Source: Naegleria gruberi (taxonomy: Eukaryota). Taken from it: a stretch of 64,000 nt of DNA. The position numbers were made by a program, and so were the translations under genes. Positions 8,022-41,560 of the stretch are shown here, one piece after another (the first letter of the stretch is position 1; every line of letters begins with the position of its first letter). The stretch lies in assembly GCA_000004985.1 (NCBI GenBank), contig GG738892.1; one strand, given 5' to 3'. The notes beneath the pieces were generated by a model, which was given only the letters and a program-made list of their open reading frames with translations, was not told the origin of the DNA and made no database searches.

Positions 8022-9233
8022 TTAATAATTGACAGCATTCTTGATCATTTCGAAACATTTGATAACACCTGGAACGTAGTACTTTTCGTGAACAAGTGGG
8101 AATGGAGTATCCAAACCACAGACACGAATAACAGGTGATTCCAAATGTAAGAAACATTTTTCTTGAACAGTGGCAGCAACTTCAGCACCAAAACCACCAG
8201 TAATTGGAGCTTCGTGACTGACAACACATCTACCAGTCTTTTGAACTGATTTGACAACTGTTTCAACATCCCATGGAACAATAGTTCTCAAATCTATTAA
8301 TTCACAATCAATACCAATTTCCTTAGCCATAGCAACAGCCTTTTCAAGGACATATAATTGACTTCCCCAACCTATAACTGTGACATCTTTACCTTCCTTT
8401 AAAACTTCAGCCTTTCCGAGTGGAATCTTATATGCTTCATTTGGAACAAGACTAACACTTGAACGATATAAAATCTTTGGTTCAAAGAAAATCACTGGAT
8501 TTCTATCTTCAATACTTGATAATAATAAACCCTTAGCTTGGACTGGATTTCTTGGAATAACAACCTTAAGACCTGGTGTATGAGCAAAATAGGCTTCTGG
8601 TGATTGAGAGTGGTAATGTCCACCATGTCCAACAGCACTACTTGGTGTACGAATTGTTAAACCTCCAACATCAAACAAATTTCCACTTCTGAAACGGTAT
8701 TTAGCAGCTTCATTGACAATTTGGTCAAATGCAGGGAAAATGTAATCAGCAAATTGAATTTCAGCAATTGCAGTATGTCCCATAGCAGCAACACCAACAC
8801 CAAATCCGATAACACCTTGTTCACACAATGGTGTGTTGAAAACACGATCCTTGCCGAATTGATCACGTAAATCGACTGTACATCTAAAAACTCCTCCAAA
8901 AGCAACATCTTCACCAAAAACCAATGCAGTAGAATCCTTTTCCATAGCTTGCTTCATAGCAATATTAATACTATTGCACAAGTTCAATTCAGTAGAATTA
9001 CTTTCGGTAATGTTGACTTCTTCTGGATTATGGTGATAGACAAGTTCGTGTTTATAATTCTTGTATTTGTTGACATCAATTTTATGATCATCTAATTTGT
9101 AAACATCTTCCTCCAATGCTGGTTTACTTTTTTGAACAAGTGATGATGAGAAGAATTTTTGTTGAGAGGAGAAGATTTTTGGTTTTAAAACACTATTAAC
9201 AGTGCGGGAAAGAGAGGAGCGTGAAAGTTTCAT
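8022..9233 (-). CDS. BCKDHB: Branched-chain 2-oxoacid dehydrogenase E1 component beta subunit, mitochondrial (transketolase-like), single exon.
   Basis: The 403-aa ORF has a basic N-terminal presequence ([19 protein letters not shown]...) and a conserved core: [36 protein letters not shown] and PWDVETV, ending [14 protein letters not shown]. Confidence 0.85.
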
Positions 9234-19470: not shown

Positions 19471-20577
19471 CTATTCTAAATTTCCTTTAAAATTTTCCAA
19501 ATCATTAACTAGTGAATTCCTTATTGGATCATATACTTTTGATATTTCTTCCCAATCACTGTATTTTTCCTCTCTCTGAAAAATGTCATTAAAATACATG
19601 TCACAAACATGCCAATCCACTATTTTTCCATGATTAGCAATCTGCTTTGCGTAATGACAAATACGAAGTGTGTGAATAACTCGTTTCTTAGCTTTGAATA
19701 TGTCAACTTCTGGAGGATCCCAACCCCATTCGTGTTCATAGAGTCCTTTACAAAATTTCCATACCATGCTAGAGAATGGATTGAATGAATCAATGATTGA
19801 TTTTGGATCAATTCGATTTTTCATTTCTGGAAATTCCTCTGATAATTTAAAGGATTGTTGAATGATAAATCGTTGATATTCTTCACTCTGCTCGAGTAAA
19901 AGAGCCAACAATTCATTGAATTTGTTCTTTTTCAATTGATTTAAAAACTGTTGTTTCGAATAAATTGAAATATCCAATTCATATTTGGGTATTTTCGAAA
20001 AGGCATAGGTTACATCCCCAGTTTTCAGATTCTTCTTTTTAATAATTGATTGAGAAATCTGTTCCACACTTGTATCATCAATAATATTGCAATTAGGATT
20101 ATTATTGCTTAATAAACCCCTTCCTTTCAAATATCTTGGTAATAAAGAATCAAATGTTTCAGTACAATAATTGTCCTTCTGATTGGTAATAAAGAGCAAA
20201 TGTTCAGGCTCCTCTTCAAAATCATAAATCATCAATAAATCATAATCACTTCCTCCATTCACTTTATAGACATCTGTACAAGGTTTTCCGTACAATCGAC
20301 TTCCATACACATAAACATTTAAAATCCTATCCTTCTCCAACAAGCCATCAAATTCATCAACAATTTTTGGAACATCCAAGGTGTCATTCTTCATCAAATC
20401 CAACAAGTACTGTTTGTTTTGGCTACATCCGATTGTATCCTTTTCAAATTCACACATTTTTTCATGATGAACTTTTGCTGATTTACCACACGAAAATGCA
20501 CGATAACCATTTTTCAAAGCATTGAAAGTGTTAGGGCGTAATGTCTGGCACTTGGTGATGGAAAAGGATTTAAACAT
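19471..20577 (-). CDS. Uncharacterised protein with a Pol-beta-superfamily nucleotidyltransferase fold signature (GS...[DE]h[DE]h) and an N-terminal mitochondrial-presequence-like region.
   Basis: The 368-aa ORF contains VYVYGSRLYGKPCTDVYKVNGGSDYDLLMIY, a GS-x(n)-SDYDL minimal NTase motif, with a candidate third acidic residue in NIIDDTS. The N-terminus MFKSFSITKCQTLRPNTFNALKNGYRAFSCGKSAKV is basic, hydroxylated and lacks acidic residues. The rest has no obvious homology. Confidence 0.35.
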   Translation of the reverse strand: MFKSFSITKCQTLRPNTFNALKNGYRAFSCGKSAKVHHEKMCEFEKDTIGCSQNKQYLLDLMKNDTLDVPKIVDEFDGLLEKDRILNVYVYGSRLYGKPCTDVYKVNGGSDYDLLMIYDFEEEPEHLLFITNQKDNYCTETFDSLLPRYLKGRGLLSNNNPNCNIIDDTSVEQISQSIIKKKNLKTGDVTYAFSKIPKYELDISIYSKQQFLNQLKKNKFNELLALLLEQSEEYQRFIIQQSFKLSEEFPEMKNRIDPKSIIDSFNPFSSMVWKFCKGLYEHEWGWDPPEVDIFKAKKRVIHTLRICHYAKQIANHGKIVDWHVCDMYFNDIFQREEKYSDWEEISKVYDPIRNSLVNDLENFKGNLE

Positions 20578-21638: not shown

Positions 21639-24600
21639 ATGAATCGAAATTTGAGACCATCAACACAAGTTGTTGTTGATGGTAAATTGATGGTAACATT
21701 GATTTTATTTATTTTAACATTGATTGGATGTGTGTTATCTGAAGTTGTTATTCCAATCAATCAGGCACAAGAAGGACATGTTGAAGCAGGCAATTCAGTC
21801 ATTTATAAATTTGAAAACATTCCTGAACTTGCCACTGACAACTCTACACTCTCTTTCATAGTGACTACTCTTTCCGGTGATGCTGATATTTATGTATCTA
21901 CAACAGGTGCTCCAGATTTTACTAATCCAAACACCTATCAATGGAAATCTGTTATTCAGGACGGAACTGATACTGTCACTCTCTCAAAAACAACAGAAGG
22001 ATATAAGAGTGGAGGACCATATTATGTTGCTGTGAATGGTTTCCAAGGTCCAGCCATGTACACAATTATTGGTTTACATTCTGATAATCATGTTAAAGTT
22101 GTTCAAGGTTTTCCACAAAATGTTTTTGTAGGATCCGGACAGTATGTCTATTTTTCATATGATGTGACAAGTAATGGATTATTTACAATTTCTGTCACTT
22201 CTTTATACGGAGAAGCAAATCTTTATGTTAGTACAACAAATCAAAAGCCAGATGCATCATCATATAATTATAAAAAGGAGTCACTAGGAGATGATTTCCT
22301 TTCCATTACACACTCTGGTGAAGTTCCAACCACTTACTATATTGGTATTAAAGGAGATCATAGTTCACAAACTCAATTCAGCTTACAAATAACTTCACCA
22401 GATGTTCAAGATATTATTGCTGATGGTATTCCTCTTTATGCCAGACTTTACAGCAGATCCACAACTTACTACAAATTTTTCTTATCAAAAGTTGTTCAAG
22501 ATTTGACAATTACAGCTGACAGAAGAACAATGCTTGGTGATCCAGATATTTTTGTTTCAAGACTTTACCAATATCCAAACTCATCTGCTTGTGAATGGTC
22601 TCACTCTCTTCATGGTACCAGTTCTATCCAAATTTCAGAACCTGAACATTTGTACCCAGGTTGGTTCTATATTGCTATTCACGATGATTCCGTTTTTTCT
22701 ACTGACTATGCACTTTACATTTCTTCAACTTTTGCTCACACTAGACTTTCTAATGGTCTTCCTCTTTCAAAACAATTAATAGGTTATAAGACTGATTATT
22801 ATGCATACTATGTTGAACCAAACAATCTTGGAGGATTTACTACTTTAGATATCTTTGTTACAAGTGCATCTGGAGTTCCTTTAAATGTTTATGGAAGTAC
22901 TATTAACAGATATCCAAATGAAAATTCTCATGACTTGGTTGGTACTTTTAATGGAGCCTCATTTGTATTACACAAGGATGACTCTCCATCTGGAATGTAC
23001 TATGTAGCAGTTACATCCACCACAAATAGCAATTATACCATTGTTGTATCATCTGCCAATAGATTTATTGAATTAGTTGACACAGTTCAATATTCTTATA
23101 CAGTTAATAAGAGAGATTATAGAAAATTTGTTCTCCCAATTTCAGATAATAGTGTTGATGTCAGTTTTTCCTTGTCAACTATTAGCGGTGATGCTGATAT
23201 GTACATTTCAACCAATCAATTAGTTGATAGAGCCAACTACAAATGGAAGGCAGCATCTTACGCAAGGAATGAACTTATTCATATTGCTGCAAATGATCCT
23301 TTAAGACATAGTCCTGAATTTGATGGAAGTCTTTATGTTGCCGTTTATGGTTATGCCGCATCTTCCTTTAGTATTGTGGCTTATTTACACACAGGTCAAC
23401 CAATAGAATTGGAAAGTGGAGTTCCTGTATATGGAGTATTGGAGAATGATATGTCTTCTCAAAATTACAAATATTACCTCAGTACAACCAGAGATTTGAG
23501 AATTGTTGTACAACCAGGAAGTGAGTCTCACGACCCAGATATTTATGTCAGTAGAACCAATCCTAACCCAGGACCATCTAGTTATGACTATCGTTCTATT
23601 TCAGTTGATGACGATGTAGTTAGTATCCCTTCTGCACAACCAGGCAATTATTTCATTTCTGTTTATACATTCTTCCCAAATACCTCATACATTCTCACTG
23701 TTTCAGCTGGATCAATGGAATTACGTACTTTTGGTATCCCAATTATTGATACAGTAGCAAAAGGTCAAACCAAGGACTATTATTCAATTCTTTCAACAGA
23801 AAACTTTGTTATTGGTGTTACTCTTATTGATGGTAATACAAACTTGAAAATTACTAACAATACTTTTACCAAATCTGATAATGGATATCCAGGTAATTAT
23901 GTCTCTTTGAGCGCATCTGAAATTACTGAAGTTGGTACCTGGAAAACTTCTGTTTATGGTGTAGAAGATTCAACTTACTATATTCATGCTTCTTCTTTGA
24001 GCTTCCAAGCTGAATTGAAGGTAGGTTTGCCAGTTATTGGTGAAGCTTTCTGTTGTGGAGAAACAGGTTCCCTTTTTGCTTACAATGGAATTTTGGTCAG
24101 CAATACAGATTATTTGGTTTATGTTAATTCACTGTATGGAGAGGATAGCTTTACTGCTGTCTATGTTGATCAATATCCTAATACCAATCCAACTCCAACA
24201 AGCCACAAATGGTCTGCTCAAGGAAGTGACGACTTGATTGTTAAACTCCCAGCCAATCAATTAGATGTTGTAAAATCTCTTTATATTTCTGTTTACTCAT
24301 ACAGAGGTTTAGCTAGATTCCATGTCACTTTGGAACAATCTGGAGCTCCAATATTTTTGACTTCTGATTCTCCTAATTATGTATTTGGTAATCCAGACCA
24401 ATCAGATTATTTTAAGGTAATGAGTTTAAGAAATTCAGCTGGACTTAATGCTGTTTTGGAATCTTGTAATGATTTGGAAGCAGCACCATTCTATGTTTCC
24501 AACATTAACCCACAACCAACACAAAATAATAGCTATGTTTCTCAAGCTGATGGTAAATTTAGACAAATTATAACAACAACCAAGTCTGAGACAAATACTT

Positions 24601-27600
24601 TCTATTATATTGGTACTTCCAAGTTGCAACACGCATTGCCTTATACTATGTTTGCTACAACAGGTACTGATAAGAGACCAATACCAAAGAATAATGGTGT
24701 TCTCATTCCTGGACCACTCATGTCAGTAAATAGCAAGAGAATTTCAGTTCCAAGTGTTGAAGGAGACTCTCAAGGTGTTTCTTACTTGGTTTACAAACGT
24801 ATATTAACTCCACAAGAAGACCCAGCCAATGTCAATATGCAAACATTGTGCGCAATTAAGGAAGAAGCTCAATTGGTCGGAGAAATTGCTACACCACCAT
24901 CTGGCGCAGATTTCGTTGATTATGATGTACCTGTTGGATTTAATGAAAGATCTGTAATTAACGTAATCGCCAAGAATAGCTATGGTGTTTCATCTGCTTA
25001 TAAGCCAATTTTCATTGGAATTGATAACAACGATTATCTTATTGATGGTGTTTCCCTTCTTTCATCAACCAATGAAACTAACAGATGCTCCCAATTTATT
25101 TTCACTGCCACACTTTTGGATACTGAGACTGTATCTTTTATTGTTACCCCTTTCTCTGGTGATGCCGATTTATTTATTGCTAATAAGCCACAAGCCTCTG
25201 AATCTAACTTTGTTTATGCAAGCCGTAATCACGGATTTGACATTGTTTCGTTCACTAAAGGAGATCCTAAATATTTCCCTGGCCCATACTATATTGGAGT
25301 TTGTGGATTGAATGATGGTATCACTGAATTTAGCATTATCGCTTCAACATCTAACAATCCTATTAAATTGAAGGATGGTCAACCTCAACTTATGACAACC
25401 AAGACTCTGGATTACAGCTACTTTACTTTTGACCTTGAAGGATCAGATGATTTTACCGTAACTGTCACACCATTGACCGGAGATCCAGATGCTTATTTGA
25501 GTACAAATCCTAAACCATCAACATTTAGCTTCATGTGGAGCAGTGAACAAAGTGCTGTTGAAATTATCAATGTTAAAAGCTCAGACAATCAATTCAAACC
25601 AGATGTTACATATCATTTGAGCATTTTTGCTTTCTCCGCTGATACTATTTATTCAGTTGTCATTACTAGAAATACCTCAATTTCTACTTTGATGCATGGT
25701 GTTAGTATGGGAGGTAGAGTTCAATCACCATATTCATCCTATTATAGATTCAAACTTACTCATCCAAGTAATGTTACAATCACTGTTAATCCATTGAATT
25801 CATTGGGTGATCCAGACATTTTTGTTTCAACTCACGACAATAATCAATATCCTGACTTTTTACATCATGATTTCTATGCCTTCTCCAGAAGTGTTGACAC
25901 ATTGACAATCAAGACAACTGATCAAGGGTGGAGAATGGGATGGTATTATATTGCAGTTGCAGGTTATAGAGAACAAACAGAATTTGAAATTACTGTTTCT
26001 TCTTCAGATGAAGTAATAGTTCTTGAAGATGGTGTTTCCCTTACCACTTCAAGTTATGTTGATGAATGGAAGTATTATGCTTTCTTCTATGGATTTGATG
26101 CCAACTCACTCACTTTCAGTGTTAGATTAGGTACAGGTATGAGATCTGAAATGGTTTGCAGTAAGACTAACTCACACCCATCAAGAGACAAGTATGACTT
26201 TTTGGGAGAAAACACTGGAGCTGAATTGCTTGCTGTAATTCCTGAAAAATCATCTATCGGATGGTATTATTGTGGCGTTCATACTTTCACTGCAAGTGAC
26301 TATTCAATCACTGCTTTTACAAACCAAAGAGCAAGATTATTGCAAGATGCTACTATGAGTACAAATAACAATGTTAGAGCTAAATATTATGTTTACTTTA
26401 CCTATACCTTACCTCCTTTTGTTAACATGACTGACATTAATATTGTAGCCTACATGAATCAAGGAGATGGTGATCTTTATGTTTCCACTAAGACTAATAG
26501 ACCAACAGACAAGAATTATCAATGGCATTCCACTTCGAGTGTGAATGAAAATTTGGTCATTGCCAAGAGTGATATTGGTTCTGATTCCAGAGAATTATTC
26601 ATTGGTGTTCATGGTTGGTCCAACGCTTTGTTTGACATTGTTGTTTATGGTTTGGATACTGTTTTAGATCTTAAAGAAAATAGTCCAGTTCTTGGTGATT
26701 CTCAAAGTAACAGTTATAAGAGATACTCATTCAAGCTTGAAAATAGAGGTGTTTTGAGAATTGATCTCTCAGTTTTGTCTGCTTACCCATCTGATTGTGA
26801 TTTCTTTGTTAGTATGACACCATACCCTACCAAGAATCATTACACATGGAAGAGTGACAAGTTTGGAGATGATACACTTCAAATTGATGAGGCTGAAGCT
26901 GGAACTTATTACATCTCAGTTTACACAACATTTATTGCTTCTAGCAAATTCTCTCTTACTGTTTCTTCTGCTTATTCATTGGTTAATGATGGAGGCCAAA
27001 TTCTTGACTTTGTTGATAGTGGTGCTGTAAGACGTTATAAGATTTTGATTCCAGAACAAGCTGCATCTATTAGTATTACAACAGTTGGTATCAATGGTAG
27101 AACAGTAATGTATGCTAGTAACAATGAAACTTTCCCAACCAAAGATTACTTTGTTGCCTCCTCAGATACTGTTCATGGTAATGGTATTTTAGTTCTTAAA
27201 TCTGATTCAATCTTTGCAACTGGAGTATGGACAGTTAGTGTATATGGTATAACTCCTGCCTCTTTCTACTTGTCCTATCAAACCTCTCAAGGTATTTTGA
27301 GAGCTGGTGTTCCACGTGTTGGTATTACCACTCTTACAAATACTGCTAAATACTTGTTACCAATTTCTAGTGCTCAACCATTGTCTATCAGTGCTAGAGT
27401 CTTTGATGTTGTGAATGACTGTATTATGGTTAATGCTTATCAAAATCCAAGTGTCAAGGCTAGTGCCAAGTCTGATCCTAGAATTAATAATGGTGTTCTT
27501 TTGGAATATGCCCAAATTTCTTCAACTCAACTCTTGACTGTTGAAGTTTCTGCATGCTCTAATAGAGTTCAATATGAGATTGTTGTCGCAGCTAAGGATC

Positions 27601-28694
27601 AACCAACCTATTTGTCACAAGATTACTACTCTTTGTTTGTTTCTGAGGCTAACACATTTGATATCTACAGTCCAAAATCTGCTCAAGCTTTAACTGTTCA
27701 ATATGATTCTTGTGATTCTACTTCAATTAAAGATACTCTCAAGGTTTTCATTGGTAAGAATAGAATTCCAACTTCACAAGATTTTGATCAAGTTGGTGTT
27801 GCCAGAAATAGATATTCAAGCAACATTGTAGTACAAAGTGCTGTTCCAAAAGCCAATTACTATGTTACCACTGTTGGTACATCTCCACAATTCTTCTCTC
27901 TCTTTACTACTACCTCCAGTCCTGATCCAAGACCAGAAGCTGTTCCATTCACTGTTAAGCCAACAAATACTGTTTCAAAGGATGGTAAAACTCAACAAGA
28001 ATACAGTGTTTCCATCGATGTTCCAAAGAGTAAGGACCACACCACCTTCTATAAGGTTGTTGCATATGGTTTGAGTGAAAAGCATAAAGGACAATCCGAT
28101 GAACAAGTTATGTCAAGCCTCAACTTCCACACTCTCTGCGCCATTAATTCCAAGTCAAATTTACAGACCGTTGGTTATGGAAATAGTTTGAGTTCATCAT
28201 TGACAATGTCTTTGTTTGCTGATGAAGATTACATTGTTAATATTATTACTTCATATGGTGAATCTGGTCAACTTCAACAAGTTTCTACTCCAATAATTAT
28301 CAGAAGAAATGATAGTGCTGTAAGCCCAGGTGGTATTATACTTCTCATCCTTGTTATTTTGGTTGTTTTGTATTTGTCTATTGGTTCTATTGTCAAGGTT
28401 GTTAAATATAAGGCTAGAGGAGCTGAAATTATTCCAAATACTGGATTCTGGAAAGAAGTTTTCAGCTTATTCTGGGAAGGTTGCCAATTTGTTTTCTTGT
28501 GTGAAATGTTCAGACGTCGTCAAACTTCTGAATATGACACTATGGATGAGGAAGGTGTTGCAGAGGATAACTCAATTAATAACCCAGACGCTTATCAAAA
28601 TAATGGTGAACAAGATGATGATGACGATGATATTAACCCATTTGCTCATTCCACAAGACAAACTCCAGAAAATGGCTACACAACCATTATTTAA
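21639..28694 (+). CDS. Giant (2351-aa) type-I membrane protein built from about 10-12 tandem bacterial-type pre-peptidase C-terminal (PPC)-like domains, with a C-terminal TM helix and an acidic cytoplasmic tail containing an NPF motif.
   Basis: It is a single uninterrupted ORF. An N-terminal hydrophobic segment (LMVTLILFILTLIGCVLS) is followed by a recurring GDADxYVS motif every 120-250 aa (SGDADIYVSTTG, GEANLYVSTTN, GDPDIFVS, GDADMYISTNQ, HDPDIYVS, GDADLFIANKP, GDPDAYLSTNP, GDPDIFVSTHD, GDGDLYVSTKT, SDCDFFVSMTP). The TM helix is GGIILLILVILVVLYLSIGSIV. The tail is ...EEGVAEDNSINNPDAYQNNGEQDDDDDDINPFAHS. Confidence 0.6.
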   Translation: MNRNLRPSTQVVVDGKLMVTLILFILTLIGCVLSEVVIPINQAQEGHVEAGNSVIYKFENIPELATDNSTLSFIVTTLSGDADIYVSTTGAPDFTNPNTYQWKSVIQDGTDTVTLSKTTEGYKSGGPYYVAVNGFQGPAMYTIIGLHSDNHVKVVQGFPQNVFVGSGQYVYFSYDVTSNGLFTISVTSLYGEANLYVSTTNQKPDASSYNYKKESLGDDFLSITHSGEVPTTYYIGIKGDHSSQTQFSLQITSPDVQDIIADGIPLYARLYSRSTTYYKFFLSKVVQDLTITADRRTMLGDPDIFVSRLYQYPNSSACEWSHSLHGTSSIQISEPEHLYPGWFYIAIHDDSVFSTDYALYISSTFAHTRLSNGLPLSKQLIGYKTDYYAYYVEPNNLGGFTTLDIFVTSASGVPLNVYGSTINRYPNENSHDLVGTFNGASFVLHKDDSPSGMYYVAVTSTTNSNYTIVVSSANRFIELVDTVQYSYTVNKRDYRKFVLPISDNSVDVSFSLSTISGDADMYISTNQLVDRANYKWKAASYARNELIHIAANDPLRHSPEFDGSLYVAVYGYAASSFSIVAYLHTGQPIELESGVPVYGVLENDMSSQNYKYYLSTTRDLRIVVQPGSESHDPDIYVSRTNPNPGPSSYDYRSISVDDDVVSIPSAQPGNYFISVYTFFPNTSYILTVSAGSMELRTFGIPIIDTVAKGQTKDYYSILSTENFVIGVTLIDGNTNLKITNNTFTKSDNGYPGNYVSLSASEITEVGTWKTSVYGVEDSTYYIHASSLSFQAELKVGLPVIGEAFCCGETGSLFAYNGILVSNTDYLVYVNSLYGEDSFTAVYVDQYPNTNPTPTSHKWSAQGSDDLIVKLPANQLDVVKSLYISVYSYRGLARFHVTLEQSGAPIFLTSDSPNYVFGNPDQSDYFKVMSLRNSAGLNAVLESCNDLEAAPFYVSNINPQPTQNNSYVSQADGKFRQIITTTKSETNTFYYIGTSKLQHALPYTMFATTGTDKRPIPKNNGVLIPGPLMSVNSKRISVPSVEGDSQGVSYLVYKRILTPQEDPANVNMQTLCAIKEEAQLVGEIATPPSGADFVDYDVPVGFNERSVINVIAKNSYGVSSAYKPIFIGIDNNDYLIDGVSLLSSTNETNRCSQFIFTATLLDTETVSFIVTPFSGDADLFIANKPQASESNFVYASRNHGFDIVSFTKGDPKYFPGPYYIGVCGLNDGITEFSIIASTSNNPIKLKDGQPQLMTTKTLDYSYFTFDLEGSDDFTVTVTPLTGDPDAYLSTNPKPSTFSFMWSSEQSAVEIINVKSSDNQFKPDVTYHLSIFAFSADTIYSVVITRNTSISTLMHGVSMGGRVQSPYSSYYRFKLTHPSNVTITVNPLNSLGDPDIFVSTHDNNQYPDFLHHDFYAFSRSVDTLTIKTTDQGWRMGWYYIAVAGYREQTEFEITVSSSDEVIVLEDGVSLTTSSYVDEWKYYAFFYGFDANSLTFSVRLGTGMRSEMVCSKTNSHPSRDKYDFLGENTGAELLAVIPEKSSIGWYYCGVHTFTASDYSITAFTNQRARLLQDATMSTNNNVRAKYYVYFTYTLPPFVNMTDINIVAYMNQGDGDLYVSTKTNRPTDKNYQWHSTSSVNENLVIAKSDIGSDSRELFIGVHGWSNALFDIVVYGLDTVLDLKENSPVLGDSQSNSYKRYSFKLENRGVLRIDLSVLSAYPSDCDFFVSMTPYPTKNHYTWKSDKFGDDTLQIDEAEAGTYYISVYTTFIASSKFSLTVSSAYSLVNDGGQILDFVDSGAVRRYKILIPEQAASISITTVGINGRTVMYASNNETFPTKDYFVASSDTVHGNGILVLKSDSIFATGVWTVSVYGITPASFYLSYQTSQGILRAGVPRVGITTLTNTAKYLLPISSAQPLSISARVFDVVNDCIMVNAYQNPSVKASAKSDPRINNGVLLEYAQISSTQLLTVEVSACSNRVQYEIVVAAKDQPTYLSQDYYSLFVSEANTFDIYSPKSAQALTVQYDSCDSTSIKDTLKVFIGKNRIPTSQDFDQVGVARNRYSSNIVVQSAVPKANYYVTTVGTSPQFFSLFTTTSSPDPRPEAVPFTVKPTNTVSKDGKTQQEYSVSIDVPKSKDHTTFYKVVAYGLSEKHKGQSDEQVMSSLNFHTLCAINSKSNLQTVGYGNSLSSSLTMSLFADEDYIVNIITSYGESGQLQQVSTPIIIRRNDSAVSPGGIILLILVILVVLYLSIGSIVKVVKYKARGAEIIPNTGFWKEVFSLFWEGCQFVFLCEMFRRRQTSEYDTMDEEGVAEDNSINNPDAYQNNGEQDDDDDDINPFAHSTRQTPENGYTTII

Positions 28695-31572: not shown

Positions 31573-32577
31573 TTGATGAAGACAAAAACAGAAGAGTTTC
31601 AACATGATTACAATGAAAATGATCAATTGTATTATCATGATCTTTTAAATCTAACTCCGAATGAATTCTTAGCCAAATATCATCACAATAATAGTAATAA
31701 CAATAATACAACAACAACATGCAATGAAAGTGTTAATTTACAAGTAGAACAAGAACATCCAGAAAGCAAATCCAACGTTTTTATTTCCTCCGATGTAATG
31801 TGTTATATCATCATGACCTATCTAGATTGGAAAACAATATTTACAAGTTGTTTATTGGTGAATAAGGAGTTTTTCAGAAGAATTGCCAATAATCGTCAGC
31901 TTTTTATTCAATTATTTAATGAATTATTTGTGATGGATCAGAAAATGATTGATAGTATGACAAGTAGATCGACATTTAAAAAAACTTTAACTAGTAATAA
32001 TAATTTCATTGTAAATGGAGGTATTGGAATACCAAATGAGCATTATCACATTTGGAGAGATGGTTACAATAGCTATTTATATGCAACTGGTAAGAGATTT
32101 AAGCAATCTTTACAAAAGCATCATGTCAATAATTCGATAATGACTGATGCCAAATTGAGATTAATTAGAGAAAAGTGGAATACTGCCATTTCTGGAAAAA
32201 GCCAACAAAAGAAAAATCAAGTGAGATCTAAAAGGGATGAGAATAAATCCTTGTTAAATCTCATCAAGAAGATTATTAAGGATCGATTATTTATGAGAAA
32301 GTACTTTGATGGTGATAGGTTTAAATCTAAGAGATTTGAATTTCGTGAACAGATTTATTTTGAAAAGAAACTTCAAGTTCATGATTCTCTTCTTCGTTAT
32401 ACTGATCACAAGAAGTATTTAGCTAAATTGGAGGAAGCCAAGAAATTGTACAACAATCAAGACACATTGGAGAAACAAATTGAAAGTTTAATTCATTCTG
32501 AATATGAAAAGCCAGAGATTGAGGAGATTATAATTGGAGATTTACATGACAATAGTGGACCAACTGATCTATTTCTN
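31573..32577 (+). CDS. F-box-like protein, 5' part only. The ORF runs into the assembly gap, so it is incomplete.
   Basis: An F-box-like segment ISSDVMCYIIMTYLDWKTIFTSCLLVNKEFFRRI follows a poly-N/T low-complexity N-terminus. The ORF is open up to the N run. An in-frame coding-like tail appears after the gap (33344..33460) and may belong to the same gene. Confidence 0.4.
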
Positions 32578-33343
32578 NNNNNNNNNNNNNNNNNNNNNNN
32601 NNNNNNNNNNNNNNNNNNNNNNNNNNNNNNNNNNNNNNNNNNNNNNNNNNNNNNNNNNNNNNNNNNNNNNNNNNNNNNNNNNNNNNNNNNNNNNNNNNNN
32701 NNNNNNNNNNNNNNNNNNNNNNNNNNNNNNNNNNNNNNNNNNNNNNNNNNNNNNNNNNNNNNNNNNNNNNNNNNNNNNNNNNNNNNNNNNNNNNNNNNNN
32801 NNNNNNNNNNNNNNNNNNNNNNNNNNNNNNNNNNNNNNNNNNNNNNNNNNNNNNNNNNNNNNNNNNNNNNNNNNNNNNNNNNNNNNNNNNNNNNNNNNNN
32901 NNNNNNNNNNNNNNNNNNNNNNNNNNNNNNNNNNNNNNNNNNNNNNNNNNNNNNNNNNNNNNNNNNNNNNNNNNNNNNNNNNNNNNNNNNNNNNNNNNNN
33001 NNNNNNNNNNNNNNNNNNNNNNNNNNNNNNNNNNNNNNNNNNNNNNNNNNNNNNNNNNNNNNNNNNNNNNNNNNNNNNNNNNNNNNNNNNNNNNNNNNNN
33101 NNNNNNNNNNNNNNNNNNNNNNNNNNNNNNNNNNNNNNNNNNNNNNNNNNNNNNNNNNNNNNNNNNNNNNNNNNNNNNNNNNNNNNNNNNNNNNNNNNNN
33201 NNNNNNNNNNNNNNNNNNNNNNNNNNNNNNNNNNNNNNNNNNNNNNNNNNNNNNNNNNNNNNNNNNNNNNNNNNNNNNNNNNNNNNNNNNNNNNNNNNNN
33301 NNNNNNNNNNNNNNNNNNNNNNNNNNNNNNNNNNNNNNNNNNN
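32578..33343. other. Assembly gap (766 N).
   Basis: An uninterrupted run of n characters. All ORFs in the track containing X runs are artefacts of this gap. Confidence 0.99.
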
Positions 33344-33738: not shown

Positions 33739-35347
33739 TTATTGAATATGTTGGCTTTCTTGGTAAGTTGGAGTAGCACTGAATCGTTGATAACCCTTAA
33801 TTACCTTATTGATAGCATCGAGCATATCCTTTTCGGAAACTGTCTTTCTTCTTGCTCGAATAGCAAACATACCAGCTTCTGTACAAACAGATCTAATTTC
33901 AGCACCTGTAGCATTAGGACACAAACGAGCCAATAATTCATATCTGATATCCTTGTCAACGTTCATATTCTTGGCGTGAATTCTGAAAATGTTAGTTCTT
34001 GCTTCAAGATCTGGAAGACCAAATTCAATCTTACGATCCAATCTACCAGGTCTCATCAAAGCAGGATCCAGAATATCTGGTCTGTTAGTAGCCATGAGAA
34101 CCTTAATATTACCACGAGCCTCAAAACCATCCAATTGGTTGACAATTTCAAGCATAGTTCTTTGAACTTCATTGTCACCACCAGCACCATCGTCAAAACG
34201 AGTACCACCAATAGCATCAACTTCATCAAAGAAAATAATACAAGCTTTACGTTGACGAGCCATTTGGAACAATTCTCTTACCATACGAGCGCCTTCACCG
34301 ACATATTTTTGAACCAATTCAGATCCAATAACACGAATAAAGGTAGCATCGGTTCTGTTAGCAACAGCTCTAGCAAGCAATGTTTTACCAGTACCTGGTG
34401 GACCATAGAGCAAGACTAATTTTTCAATTAAAGTAAAAACTCAAATAGTGACACTTACCTCCTTTTGGTGGGTCAATACCAAGACCTTCGAATTTTTCTG
34501 GATGGAGAAGTGGTGTCTCAACAACTTCACGGATTTTATCAATTTGCTCCTTAGATCCACCAATATCATTATATGTAATATCTGGTTTTTCTTCCACAGT
34601 CATCATTGTAACACTGGCATCAATTTTTGGAGGGAGTGGAATACGAATTTGATATTTTGTACGATCAACACCAATACGCATACCTTCTTCAATATCTGTT
34701 GGTGCTACGTTTTCTCCTAATCCTACAACATATTTAGCAATTTGACGAACATTGATGAGGTACTTTGGTTCCTCTTCATCATCATCAATAATTTTTGTAC
34801 ATCTAGCAACTTGCAATGGCATTTCATGTTGAAGAGTTGCTTTATCTTGTTGAATATCCCAAAGACTTGGATTTGCCAAGCCAGTATCAGATTCCTTTAC
34901 ACCACATAATTCATTTACTTCTTGTACCATTTTCTTAAGGCCATCTTCTGTTTCTTTTCTATGATATTGTTGATTCAATAATTATAAAATTGATCCAAAT
35001 TAATCCGAACAATAAAATTGTAGCAAGTTGATCAGGTTGTAAATCATCATTTTCAGTCATTAATGTTAGTGTTATGAGTTATTGTTATTAACGAAAATAT
35101 AGTAGATATACATTATTATACAATATAAGTAATATGTTAAGATTGTACAAAATCTAAGCTACTTTGTTTTGAAGCTAGCGACTTACATTTTTCCAGAGTA
35201 TGGTCCTTGTCCATATCGTTTAATCAATTTAATTTCTTCGGCATCCAATGGATTTATAGGTGTATCTTTCTTTTCATCTTCCTTGTTATCACTTGATTCT
35301 GGTTTCTTTTCCTCTGGTTTCTTATTGTCTTGTTCTTGTTGAGACAT
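33739..35347 (-). CDS. PSMC2: 26S proteasome regulatory subunit 7 (Rpt1, AAA-ATPase), 3 exons.
   Basis: Minus-strand exons are 35187..35347, 34459..34958 and 33739..34415, with introns of 228 and 43 nt. The protein is near-identical to human PSMC2 over long stretches ([91 protein letters not shown]-terminal KFSATP). The exon junctions reproduce human YSRQIKQVEDD (ours YSGKIKETEDG) and PPKGVLL.GPPG. Confidence 0.9.
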
Positions 35348-39324: not shown

Positions 39325-39382
39325 ACATAGAGTAAAAAGCCAAAAATGGAGTCATAGGGAATCGAACCCTAGACCTTCTGCA

Positions 39383-39413
<31 letters not shown>

Positions 39414-39468
39414 AACCCCTACTATTTTGTTTTTTAAATATACTACTCCATTTGTTAGATTACAATGA
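39325..39468. repeat. About 145-bp segment containing tRNA-Ala, duplicated at 41466..41608 in the same orientation.
   Basis: The 73-nt tRNA is identical in both copies and both flanks are highly similar (agtaaaWagccaaaaatgg... and ...ataacccctactRttttgttWtttaaa-atatactactccatttgtta). Confidence 0.7.
39347..39419 (-). tRNA. tRNA-Ala (anticodon UGC), copy 1.
   Basis: A 73-nt cloverleaf: GGGGUUA acceptor stem with the G3:U70 alanine identity pair, D-arm GCUCAGUUGGUAGAGC, anticodon loop UUUGCAU and T-arm GGGUUCGAUUCCC. CCA is not encoded. Confidence 0.85.
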
Positions 39469-39622
39469 GCTCTGTCTCGCGTTATTGATCTAGTGTGTAC
39501 TAAAAACTTGATTATAATTTGAATAACATTGAACCTTCAAGCCAATTAGCATAAAAAATGAAACCATTTACACTTCATTCACAAGGTGGGTTTTTTCTCA
39601 TGACTATTTGATTCCAATAAGA

Positions 39623-40756
39623 ATGAAAGCAATATTTGCTGATGATATTTGTGTTGAAATATTTTCCTTCTTATCCGAAGATTGTAAATCGATGATGATT
39701 TATTCTCTTGTTTCAAATCAGTGGTTAACAATCATTCGAGAAAGGTCGAATATTTCTCTTTGCATCAACACAAGAAAAATGGTCAACCATGAATTGTTGA
39801 ATTATTTTACAAAGATAAAGTTTGCGCCATCAACATTTAATGACCTGGGATTTAACAAGATCAATACGAAACGATTAAAAGAGATTGAAATAATGTATAA
39901 TCGGCTTGGTGTTGAAGGAGCAAAATTGATTGGAAAATTGTCTCAGTTGACTATTTTAAATATCAGTAATAATCAGATTGGGGATTTAGGAGCTCAATCA
40001 ATAAGTGAATTGAAACTACTAAAGGAGCTTTTTGCTGATAACAATCAAATTGGCAATACAGGAGTCAGTTTTATAAGCCAATTGAAACAATTACTCAAAC
40101 TTTCACTGATGGGAAATTATTTTGACAATGAAGGTGTTTATTCAATTAGTAAAATGGACCAATTGACTGAACTGGATATAGGAACGAACAAAATCGATGA
40201 AAAAGGGGCTCAATATATTGGTGAAATGAAACAATTAAGGAAACTTTTCATTTCTGGAACTCAAATTGGTTCAGAAGGAGCTAAAGCCATCAGTGGATTA
40301 CCAAATTTGACCAATTTAAATATTGGATACAGTCAGATTGGGATTGAAGGTGCAAAATATGTTTGTGGAATGCATCAATTAACTCAACTTGGAATTGGAA
40401 ACAGCAGAATTGGAGTTGAAACAGCTAAACTAATTGGTCAATTGAAACATTTAACTTTTTTGGTGATTGAAGGTAATAATATAGGTGATGAGGGTGCAAA
40501 ATATATTAGTGAAGCTAAATTGAAGAAATTAGTAATTAGCAATGGAAGAATTGGTGGAGAAGGCGCTCAATATATTGCTAAATTACATCAATTAACTAAT
40601 CTTGACATTAGTTGTAATAATGTGGATACAGCAGGTGCTAGATCAATAAGTAAATTACCCAATTTGACAATACTCGATATAAGTGTCAATAAAATTGGAT
40701 CAGGAGGAGCAAGATTGATCAAAGGAATGACCCAATTGACCAAAGTCATTCAATAA
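39623..40756 (+). CDS. F-box-like / RNI-type leucine-rich-repeat protein.
   Basis: An N-terminal F-box-like segment (ICVEIFSFLSEDCKSMMIYSLVSNQWLTII) is followed by at least 10 repeats of the 24-28-aa ribonuclease-inhibitor-type LRR (LxxLxIsxNxIGxxGAxxIsxLxx). Confidence 0.65.
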   Translation: MKAIFADDICVEIFSFLSEDCKSMMIYSLVSNQWLTIIRERSNISLCINTRKMVNHELLNYFTKIKFAPSTFNDLGFNKINTKRLKEIEIMYNRLGVEGAKLIGKLSQLTILNISNNQIGDLGAQSISELKLLKELFADNNQIGNTGVSFISQLKQLLKLSLMGNYFDNEGVYSISKMDQLTELDIGTNKIDEKGAQYIGEMKQLRKLFISGTQIGSEGAKAISGLPNLTNLNIGYSQIGIEGAKYVCGMHQLTQLGIGNSRIGVETAKLIGQLKHLTFLVIEGNNIGDEGAKYISEAKLKKLVISNGRIGGEGAQYIAKLHQLTNLDISCNNVDTAGARSISKLPNLTILDISVNKIGSGGARLIKGMTQLTKVIQ

Positions 40757-41487: not shown

Positions 41488-41523
41488 TGGAGTCATAGGG
41501 AATCGAACCCTAGACCTTCTGCA

Positions 41524-41554
<31 letters not shown>

Positions 41555-41560
41555 AACCCC
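41488..41560 (-). tRNA. tRNA-Ala (anticodon UGC), copy 2.
   Basis: Sequence identical to the copy at 39347..39419. Confidence 0.85.

Follow-up and report, generated by a model that had tools for sequence, protein, structure and literature searches.

A divergent eukaryotic RlaP-like nucleotidyltransferase encoded by Naegleria gruberi, with a candidate role at RNA 3′ ends

The RlaP family of nucleotidyltransferases was reportedly defined by Burroughs and Aravind in 2016. Enzymes of the family from two Pseudomonas species (PfRlaP and PaRlaP) add one or two nucleoside monophosphates to the 3′-OH of RNA, using any nucleoside triphosphate (NTP) as well as deoxynucleoside triphosphates; they prefer Mn2+ and do not act on DNA or protein (PMC12776372). 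The crystal structure comprises a nucleotidyltransferase (NTase) domain and a helical domain with a cleft between them, and RlaP restores the aminoacylation of a transfer RNA (tRNA) that is short of an extra anticodon-loop nucleotide before ligation (PMC12776372). Among jumbo phages, the distribution of RlaP tracks that of RNA ligases (PMC7824862). Here, we describe a gene on the minus strand at positions 19471–20577 of a 64,000-nucleotide stretch of Naegleria gruberi DNA (contig GG738892.1 of assembly GCA_000004985.1; the whole stretch is referred to as the window), and argue with moderate confidence, from sequence comparison, that it encodes a divergent eukaryotic RlaP-like NTase that would add nucleotides to RNA 3′ ends.

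The gene is a complete, single-exon coding sequence of 368 codons plus stop: the listing of open reading frames (ORFs) gives an uninterrupted ATG-to-stop frame at exactly these positions, as claimed in the initial annotation, and the product aligns from end to end with orthologues from N. fowleri, Willaertia and metagenomes. The peptide from which a Pol-beta-superfamily signature had been read (VYVYGSRLYGKPCTDVYKVNGGSDYDLLMIY) is present in the frame, and the signature itself is firmly supported, as no variation at G92, S93, D111 or D113 occurs among the 61 aligned family members. To assemble the family, a profile of four heterolobosean sequences was searched exhaustively against 1.84 billion representatives, yielding 438 relatives at E ≤ 1e-3, of which 50 reached E ≤ 1e-10, most of the relatives being about 200 residues long; a separate homologue search with the family alignment gave only seven proteins, phmmer against PDB sequences returned nothing useful for the window protein, and an NCBIfam scan gave only a spurious weak match. 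With these relatives, and with orthologues in N. fowleri (46% identity) and Willaertia magna, the protein is no longer the orphan that it was first taken to be. In addition to the four signature residues, K298 and R305 are invariant in the 61-sequence alignment, and Y96, G97, S110, H302, Q312 and I319 are conserved in at least 90% of its members; the family is marked by an N-terminal block, "LNxYxYGSRxYGT...SDxD", and a C-terminal block, "GKKSLFHSLRIxxFGIQIAKxGKIxD".

The NTase core (residues 81–118, minus strand 20224–20337) contains the strand-GS element and the S110-D111-x-D113 motif, and is defined by the family alignment, by hhalign to RlaP and by the Pfam Polbeta model PF18765, which matches residues 81–135 of the window protein at E = 2.4e-4 (21.6 bits, below the gathering score of 26.9); 51 of the 61 family members show a Polbeta/NTP_transf_2-type match at E < 0.01. 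The third carboxylate is D202 (in ELDISIY), invariant in all four heterolobosean sequences and Asp or Glu in 39 of the 61 members. It lies in a segment (residues 199–249, minus strand 19831–19983) that comprises the third-carboxylate strand and the helices following it, includes the RlaP-type motif D-x3-YS-x2-F...LE-x-L, and is delimited by D202 conservation and by hhalign to T4-type RlaP. A later acidic cluster, NIIDDTS (residues 164–170), had been noted alongside the signature; it coincides with a gap in 59 of the 61 family members, does not occur in the N. fowleri or Willaertia orthologues, and was rejected as the third acidic motif. It sits in a lineage-specific insertion (residues 119–198, minus strand 19984–20223) between the DxD strand and the third-carboxylate strand, which differs even between Naegleria species: residues 164–168 are gapped in 59 of 61 sequences, and the Willaertia counterpart is much shorter, while that of N. 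fowleri differs. Finally, where nothing else had been recognised in the protein, there is a C-terminal helical-bundle domain (residues 250–368, minus strand 19474–19830) with a conserved K298-x3-H302-x2-R305 helix (K298, H302 and R305 at nucleotides 19663–19686) that also bears Q312.

Profile comparisons connect this family with RlaP. At E < 0.01, 17 of the 61 aligned members match the RlaP model PF10127. As a homologue search with T4 NrdC.11, a bona fide RlaP (46.6 bits; PMC12776372), listed only near-identical T4-like proteins, an RlaP profile was built from nine sequences, sampled across identity bands, from T4-like, Vibrio, Aeromonas, Acinetobacter, Cronobacter and Bacillus phages. In hhalign, the family profile matched T4 NrdC.11 with 96.2% probability and the nine-sequence RlaP profile with 97.3% probability (E = 2.6e-11), the latter over 189 columns spanning both domains. 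Beginning at the GS motif, the alignment takes in D202 and the "YS..F...LE.L..P" helix that comes after it and reaches the C-terminal helix; it places D111, D113 and D202 on D22, D24 and D62 of T4 NrdC.11, and pairs K298/H302/R305 with the invariant K243/H247/R250 of RlaP. The segment of the N-terminal half that holds the third Asp, aligned alone with T4-type RlaP, gave E = 2.2e-9, and the C-terminal half alone P = 3.3e-4, against 0.17–0.43 for mismatched-domain controls. When bit scores were compared at the database size of the PDB search, RlaP proteins scored 32–42 bits against the family hidden Markov model, compared with 29.6 bits for the best PDB chain (an MNT), 21.9 for ANT(3'') and 18 for KNTase, and these PDB chains matched only over the first 50–70 residues. 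The higher scores and the two-domain alignment together make RlaP, on the evidence of these profiles, the nearest characterised family, related to that of the window protein over both domains.

Structure prediction and profile searches both bear out the minimal Pol-beta-superfamily NTase fold that had been proposed. An AlphaFold model calculated with the 61-sequence alignment reached a predicted local distance difference test score (pLDDT) of 83.5 and a predicted template-modelling score of 0.82; with only the four heterolobosean sequences, the model was unusable (pLDDT 40). In the former, a low-confidence stretch (residues 4–48, pLDDT < 50) is followed by two helices, the NTase sheet carrying the GS and DxD motifs and D202, a β-rich insertion at approximately residues 119–198, and the helical bundle (helices 258–281, 290–316, 326–333 and 342–367). 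The two helices ahead of the NTase core (residues 49–80, minus strand 20338–20433; helices 49–63 and 69–75, pLDDT 85–98) are conserved in the heterolobosean orthologues. In the predicted structure, the bundle helix that carries K298, H302, R305 and Q312 faces the cleft.

The gene contexts of other family members provide some indications of function. A tblastn search of annotated phages with a 205-residue member returned 65 records, annotated as "nucleotidyltransferase" or "hypothetical"; the phages that carry a member include Bacillus phage G (gp109), Bacillus phages of the Tsamsa/Nate/PJN02 type, Lak megaphages, Salicola phage SCTP-2, and Stenotrophomonas and Xanthomonas jumbo phages, and one metagenomic member lies on a phage-like contig. 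In the Bacillus phages PJN02 and Nate, genes for RNA ligase, polynucleotide kinase or AAA ATPase, endonuclease and DNA ligase are found within approximately 2 kb of the family gene. In phage G, a tRNA cluster and a macro-domain gene lie a few kb away from the family gene, and the gene of Stenotrophomonas phage RAS14 stands beside NadM, with a GatB/YqeY-domain gene 1.2 kb downstream (L020, 7788–8219). A metagenomic protein from ENA (P0042) consists of the NTase fused to a YqeY/GatB-tail domain (42.8 bits). YqeY/GatB-tail domains bind tRNA, and the fusion and the nearby GatB-domain gene hint at a tRNA substrate. The PHROG model phrog_388 recognises some family members, over their N-terminal part, but not the window protein. 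In a stretch of Bacillus phage vB_BauM_KLEB27-3 (L015, 1–2232), an NTase found through the T4 NrdC.11 search is preceded directly by a metallophosphoesterase gene, and a second such gene follows two genes downstream, a set that is consistent with an RNA-end-healing cassette.

The family also extends to eukaryotes and giant viruses. The nearest relatives of the heterolobosean proteins (P0005, P0009 and P0153) share their contigs with genes for kinases, PI-PLC, RGS and homeobox proteins and with further eukaryotic genes, and named eukaryotic members come from Balamuthia mandrillaris, Luapelamoeba hula, Rhizamoeba saxonica and Entosiphon sulcatum; a transcript of the last (P0033, 618 residues) contains the whole NTase-plus-helical module in two tandem copies. 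In a rough neighbour-joining tree without support values, the heterolobosean clade groups with the sequences from eukaryotic contexts, apart from most of the 200-residue phage-type proteins. Foldseek matches to BFVD were led by Klosneuvirus and Terrestrivirus NTases, with phage NTases also present, including that of Shigella phage pSs-1. According to the match descriptions, the NTase module is fused to endonuclease V in Yasminevirus, to an exonuclease in Terrestrivirus and to a small-RNA-degrading nuclease in Dasosvirus; the fusion proteins in BFVD, from the Klosneuvirus group, are A0A5K0U7I7, A0A3G4ZN96 and A0A3G4ZV07.

How the Naegleria enzyme would work can be sketched by homology with RlaP. 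D111, D113 and D202 would bind a pair of divalent metals as well as the NTP, the bundle would hold the triphosphate or the RNA end through its K298/H302/R305/Q312 face, and an RNA 3′-OH end placed in the cleft would receive one or a few nucleotides without a template, probably in a Mn2+-dependent manner. Broken RNAs such as tRNAs might be trim-repaired in this way before ligation. The analysis establishes the ORF, its catalytic motifs, the fold and the homology to the phage/protist family and to RlaP; we infer the RNA substrate, the number of nucleotides added and the role in repair, as we do the cellular compartment considered below. The earlier suggestion of an RNA-tailing enzyme was roughly right as to chemistry, since RlaP extends an RNA 3′-OH by one or two nucleotides, and by analogy the window protein may do likewise. 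The N. gruberi complement of RNA ligases comprises 13 ATP-dependent enzymes and two RtcB proteins (PMC4408790), and a role as an RNA-end NTase fits a lineage so rich in RNA ligases.

Several observations weigh against this assignment. The window protein has no match to the RlaP model PF10127 even at E ≤ 10 (gathering score 23 bits) and, as it fails this formal test, it is referred to as RlaP-like rather than as a member. Only about a quarter of the family matches the same model, with P0033 (28.2 bits) and P0009 (23.9 bits) among those above its gathering score. The C-terminal domain aligned on its own with RlaP is a modest match (38% probability). The RNA-ligase neighbourhood was found in a single phage lineage, with no RNA ligase context seen around gp109 of Bacillus phage G or the gene of Stenotrophomonas phage RAS14, and in the 64-kb window there is no RNA-repair gene, the eukaryotic neighbourhood being uninformative. 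The third-carboxylate column contains Asn in 21 of the 61 members, and therefore not every family member need be active. Lastly, the near-invariant Leu-Arg at family positions 261–262 (Arg in 57 of 61) is Ile-Ile in the window protein, and the replacement of R262 by Ile calls for caution over the proposed activity.

One of the other readings considered is that of a small-molecule nucleotidyltransferase of the ANT(4')/KNTase, ANT(3'')(9) or LinB type, in which an antibiotic-like or metabolite substrate would be lodged between the NTase and helical domains and adenylylated on a hydroxyl. The closest solved folds are indeed the kanamycin, lincosamide and streptomycin nucleotidyltransferases, and the top Foldseek match in the PDB is the kanamycin enzyme ANT(4') (E = 4.7e-4, probability 1.00), aligned over both domains with TM-scores of 0.28–0.37; the TM-scores in this group (0.27–0.37) are nevertheless low, the sequence-profile similarity to ANT is weak and restricted to the N-terminal 50–70 residues (E = 0.001–0.02) whereas RlaP aligns over both domains, and drug resistance is a poor match for a family that is borne mainly by phages and giant viruses and has some members encoded next to an RNA ligase and a kinase, or joined to YqeY or to nucleases in one protein. 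We consider this reading distinctly unlikely. After ANT(4'), the Foldseek list continues with the NTase-like protein 3c18, TbTUT4, Tam41 and mtPAP, of which TUT4 and mtPAP are weak fold matches (E = 0.015–0.04). Such matches to signalling NTases and terminal uridylyltransferases (TUTases) are explained by the shared minimal NTase core, and it is very improbable that the protein makes signals or oligonucleotides in the manner of a CD-NTase, OAS or HalB-like NTase, or that it tails RNA processively as a TUTase or poly(A) polymerase does. Its predicted C-terminal domain is a helical bundle that is not of the PAP/OAS type. The Cid1/TUTase, OAS and cGAS-Mab21 families that had been named as relatives are not borne out either: Pfam at E ≤ 10 gave no match to PAP_assoc (PF03828), Mab-21, OAS1_C or SMODS/CD-NTase-type models, and RlaP is nearest instead. 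Nor was there support for the proposal of a signalling NTase, as PADLOC returned no CBASS cyclase match and assigned the window protein to no defence system. It is more doubtful still that the protein is a fused MNT-HEPN-like module with a conflict or toxin-antitoxin-like role, in which either the NTase AMPylates a protein target, in the way that MntA modifies HepT, or the helical domain is an RNase. The HEPN R-x4-6-H motif is not present and the fold match of the bundle is not specific, and for these reasons we do not regard the C-terminal domain as a HEPN RNase.

The remaining alternatives concern the descent of the gene. A protein of 99% identity (P0001) was found on metagenomic contigs with the same upstream EF1_GNE gene. 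These contigs, which represent a second strain, are 98.8% identical in DNA to the window over 4.25 kb, with three synonymous and three non-synonymous differences in the gene, too few for a ratio of non-synonymous to synonymous rates (dN/dS). No synteny, and no common neighbour, exists between the window locus and the N. fowleri locus, and no second copy of the gene was found inside the window. The sequencing run that yielded P0001 (ERR1078381) also contains a second heterolobosean homologue, P0003, and one organism may thus carry two paralogues. The P0003 and N. fowleri loci have a downstream neighbour in common (62% identity over 50 residues; L002 1840–1989 versus L001 8054–8203); the window locus has no neighbour in common with either. 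On these grounds, the window gene could be a decaying or neofunctionalised paralogue with no role in nucleotidyl transfer, a fast-evolving copy, with the true orthologue of the N. fowleri gene located elsewhere in the genome; its greater divergence (42–46% identity) and the loss of the near-invariant R262 point the same way. However, the ORF is intact in both strains, all of the metal-binding residues and the K/H/R/Q helix are retained, and the three amino-acid differences between the strains all lie outside the catalytic domains, two of them in the N-terminal extension (residues 23 and 48). Loss of function in this form is thus, in our estimate, decidedly improbable, and the co-occurrence of P0003 and P0001 in one run is explained equally well by two organisms in the sample.

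The N-terminal extension (residues 1–48, minus strand 20434–20577) is a gene-specific feature that composition, pLDDT and homologue comparison mark as basic, predicted to be disordered and possibly a mitochondrial presequence. Residues 1–38 include seven Lys or Arg, five of these within the first 30, and no Asp or Glu, the first acidic residue being at position 39; by eye, R26-A-F|S29 reads as what we take to be an R-3-type processing pattern. In a composition ranking, only three of the 34 ATG-initiated ORFs of at least 150 residues in the window have a presequence-like N-terminus: the NTase, a 2-oxoacid dehydrogenase E1-beta, and one more. The E1-beta protein (Transket_pyr plus Transketolase_C, 403 residues, 8022–9233, minus strand) serves as an internal control, with an N-terminal extension of approximately 80 residues that is basic and acid-free for its first 40; E1-beta is a classical matrix enzyme, and this extension is likely a true mitochondrial presequence. 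The likeness of the NTase N-terminus to a targeting peptide, noted in the initial annotation, holds for its composition but not for its conservation, as N. fowleri, Willaertia, P0003 and the other eukaryotic homologues lack the extension and either start later or are acidic within the first 5–17 positions; that two of the three amino-acid differences between the strains occur in the extension also speaks against a presequence. The window gene may be a divergent paralogue, as would be expected of a retargeted copy, and we advance tentatively, as an unlikely variant, that it is a Naegleria-specific paralogue of a phage-derived RlaP-like NTase that has gained a mitochondrial presequence, the P0003/N. 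fowleri-type copy being cytosolic. If true, this mitochondrion would have its own RNA 3′-end repair or tailing, an organellar use by a eukaryote of a phage RNA-repair enzyme.

The surrounding DNA is AT-rich (approximately 33% GC) and plainly eukaryotic nuclear in character. The neighbours of the NTase gene encode a CS-domain protein, an EF-1 guanine-nucleotide-exchange-domain protein and a 2351-residue mannose-6-phosphate-receptor-like protein; farther away are genes for CstF-77/Suf, V-ATPase subunits, the proteasome subunit Rpt1, and RRM, BRCT and leucine-rich-repeat (LRR) proteins. The 2351-residue protein is encoded by a single ORF (21639–28694, plus strand) with repeated UPF0669/PPC-like modules, a mannose-6-phosphate-receptor/ATG27-like region and a C-terminal membrane anchor, and looks like a giant protein of the sorting-receptor type. 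An assembly gap of 767 Ns at 32577–33343 accounts for the low-GC bin and the spurious long ORFs at 31.5–33.5 kb. Beside it, Rpt1 is split over adjacent ORFs (PRS7_OB part at 34424–34978, AAA part at 33739–34413, minus strand), which suggests a short intron or a frame change. Two tRNA-Ala(TGC) genes on the minus strand (39347–39419 and 41488–41560, approximately 2.1 kb apart) flank an LRR-protein ORF at 39608–40756.

The analysis turns an unannotated "orphan" into a testable candidate for a eukaryotic RlaP-like RNA-end nucleotidyltransferase, and places it in a compact branch of a phage RNA-repair family that is mostly missed by the Pfam and PHROG models and is spread patchily over free-living amoebae (Heterolobosea and Amoebozoa), a euglenozoan and giant viruses. 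An end-filling NTase would, if the proposal is true, be a missing partner for the RNA-ligase toolkit of Naegleria. In practical terms little is gained beyond an annotation, a target for biochemistry and a profile that recognises the family.

Set beside the known systems, cGAS/OAS/Mab21 and the bacterial CD-NTases share with the window protein only the Pol-beta superfamily core; it has no Pfam or PADLOC match to them and lacks a Mab21-type C-terminal domain. Cid1/TUTase, mtPAP and the RNA-editing TUTases likewise have the Pol-beta minimal NTase core, and themselves add nucleotides to RNA 3′ ends without a template, but the window protein shows no PAP_assoc or PAP-central match, has a different C-terminal domain and resembles them only weakly in fold. 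ANT(4'), ANT(3'')(9) and LinB provide the best solved-structure matches and the same NTase-plus-helical-bundle architecture, yet they have antibiotic substrates, share only the generic NTase core in sequence and align with low TM-scores. The compact NTases of phages, for instance gp109 of Bacillus phage G and gp167 of Bacillus phage Nate, which are uncharacterised, belong to the same family by profile search, over both domains and with the invariant residues, and differ in being approximately 200 residues long, with neither the N-terminal extension nor the insertion. With RlaP, the protein has in common the N-terminal minimal NTase (GS, DxD and third Asp), the D-x3-YS-x2-F...LE-x-L segment and, at the C terminus, the helical domain with its K-x3-H-x2-R helix; large phages carry both families in abundance, and genes for some members of the window family adjoin those for RNA ligase and kinase. 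T4-type RlaP has an insertion of approximately 100 residues in the helical domain that is absent from the compact, approximately 200-residue window family, whereas the Naegleria protein is enlarged by 80 residues inserted in the NTase domain and by a basic N-terminal extension of 48 residues, and has no R262. It represents no new class, being a divergent form, from a eukaryote, of an enzyme of known kind.

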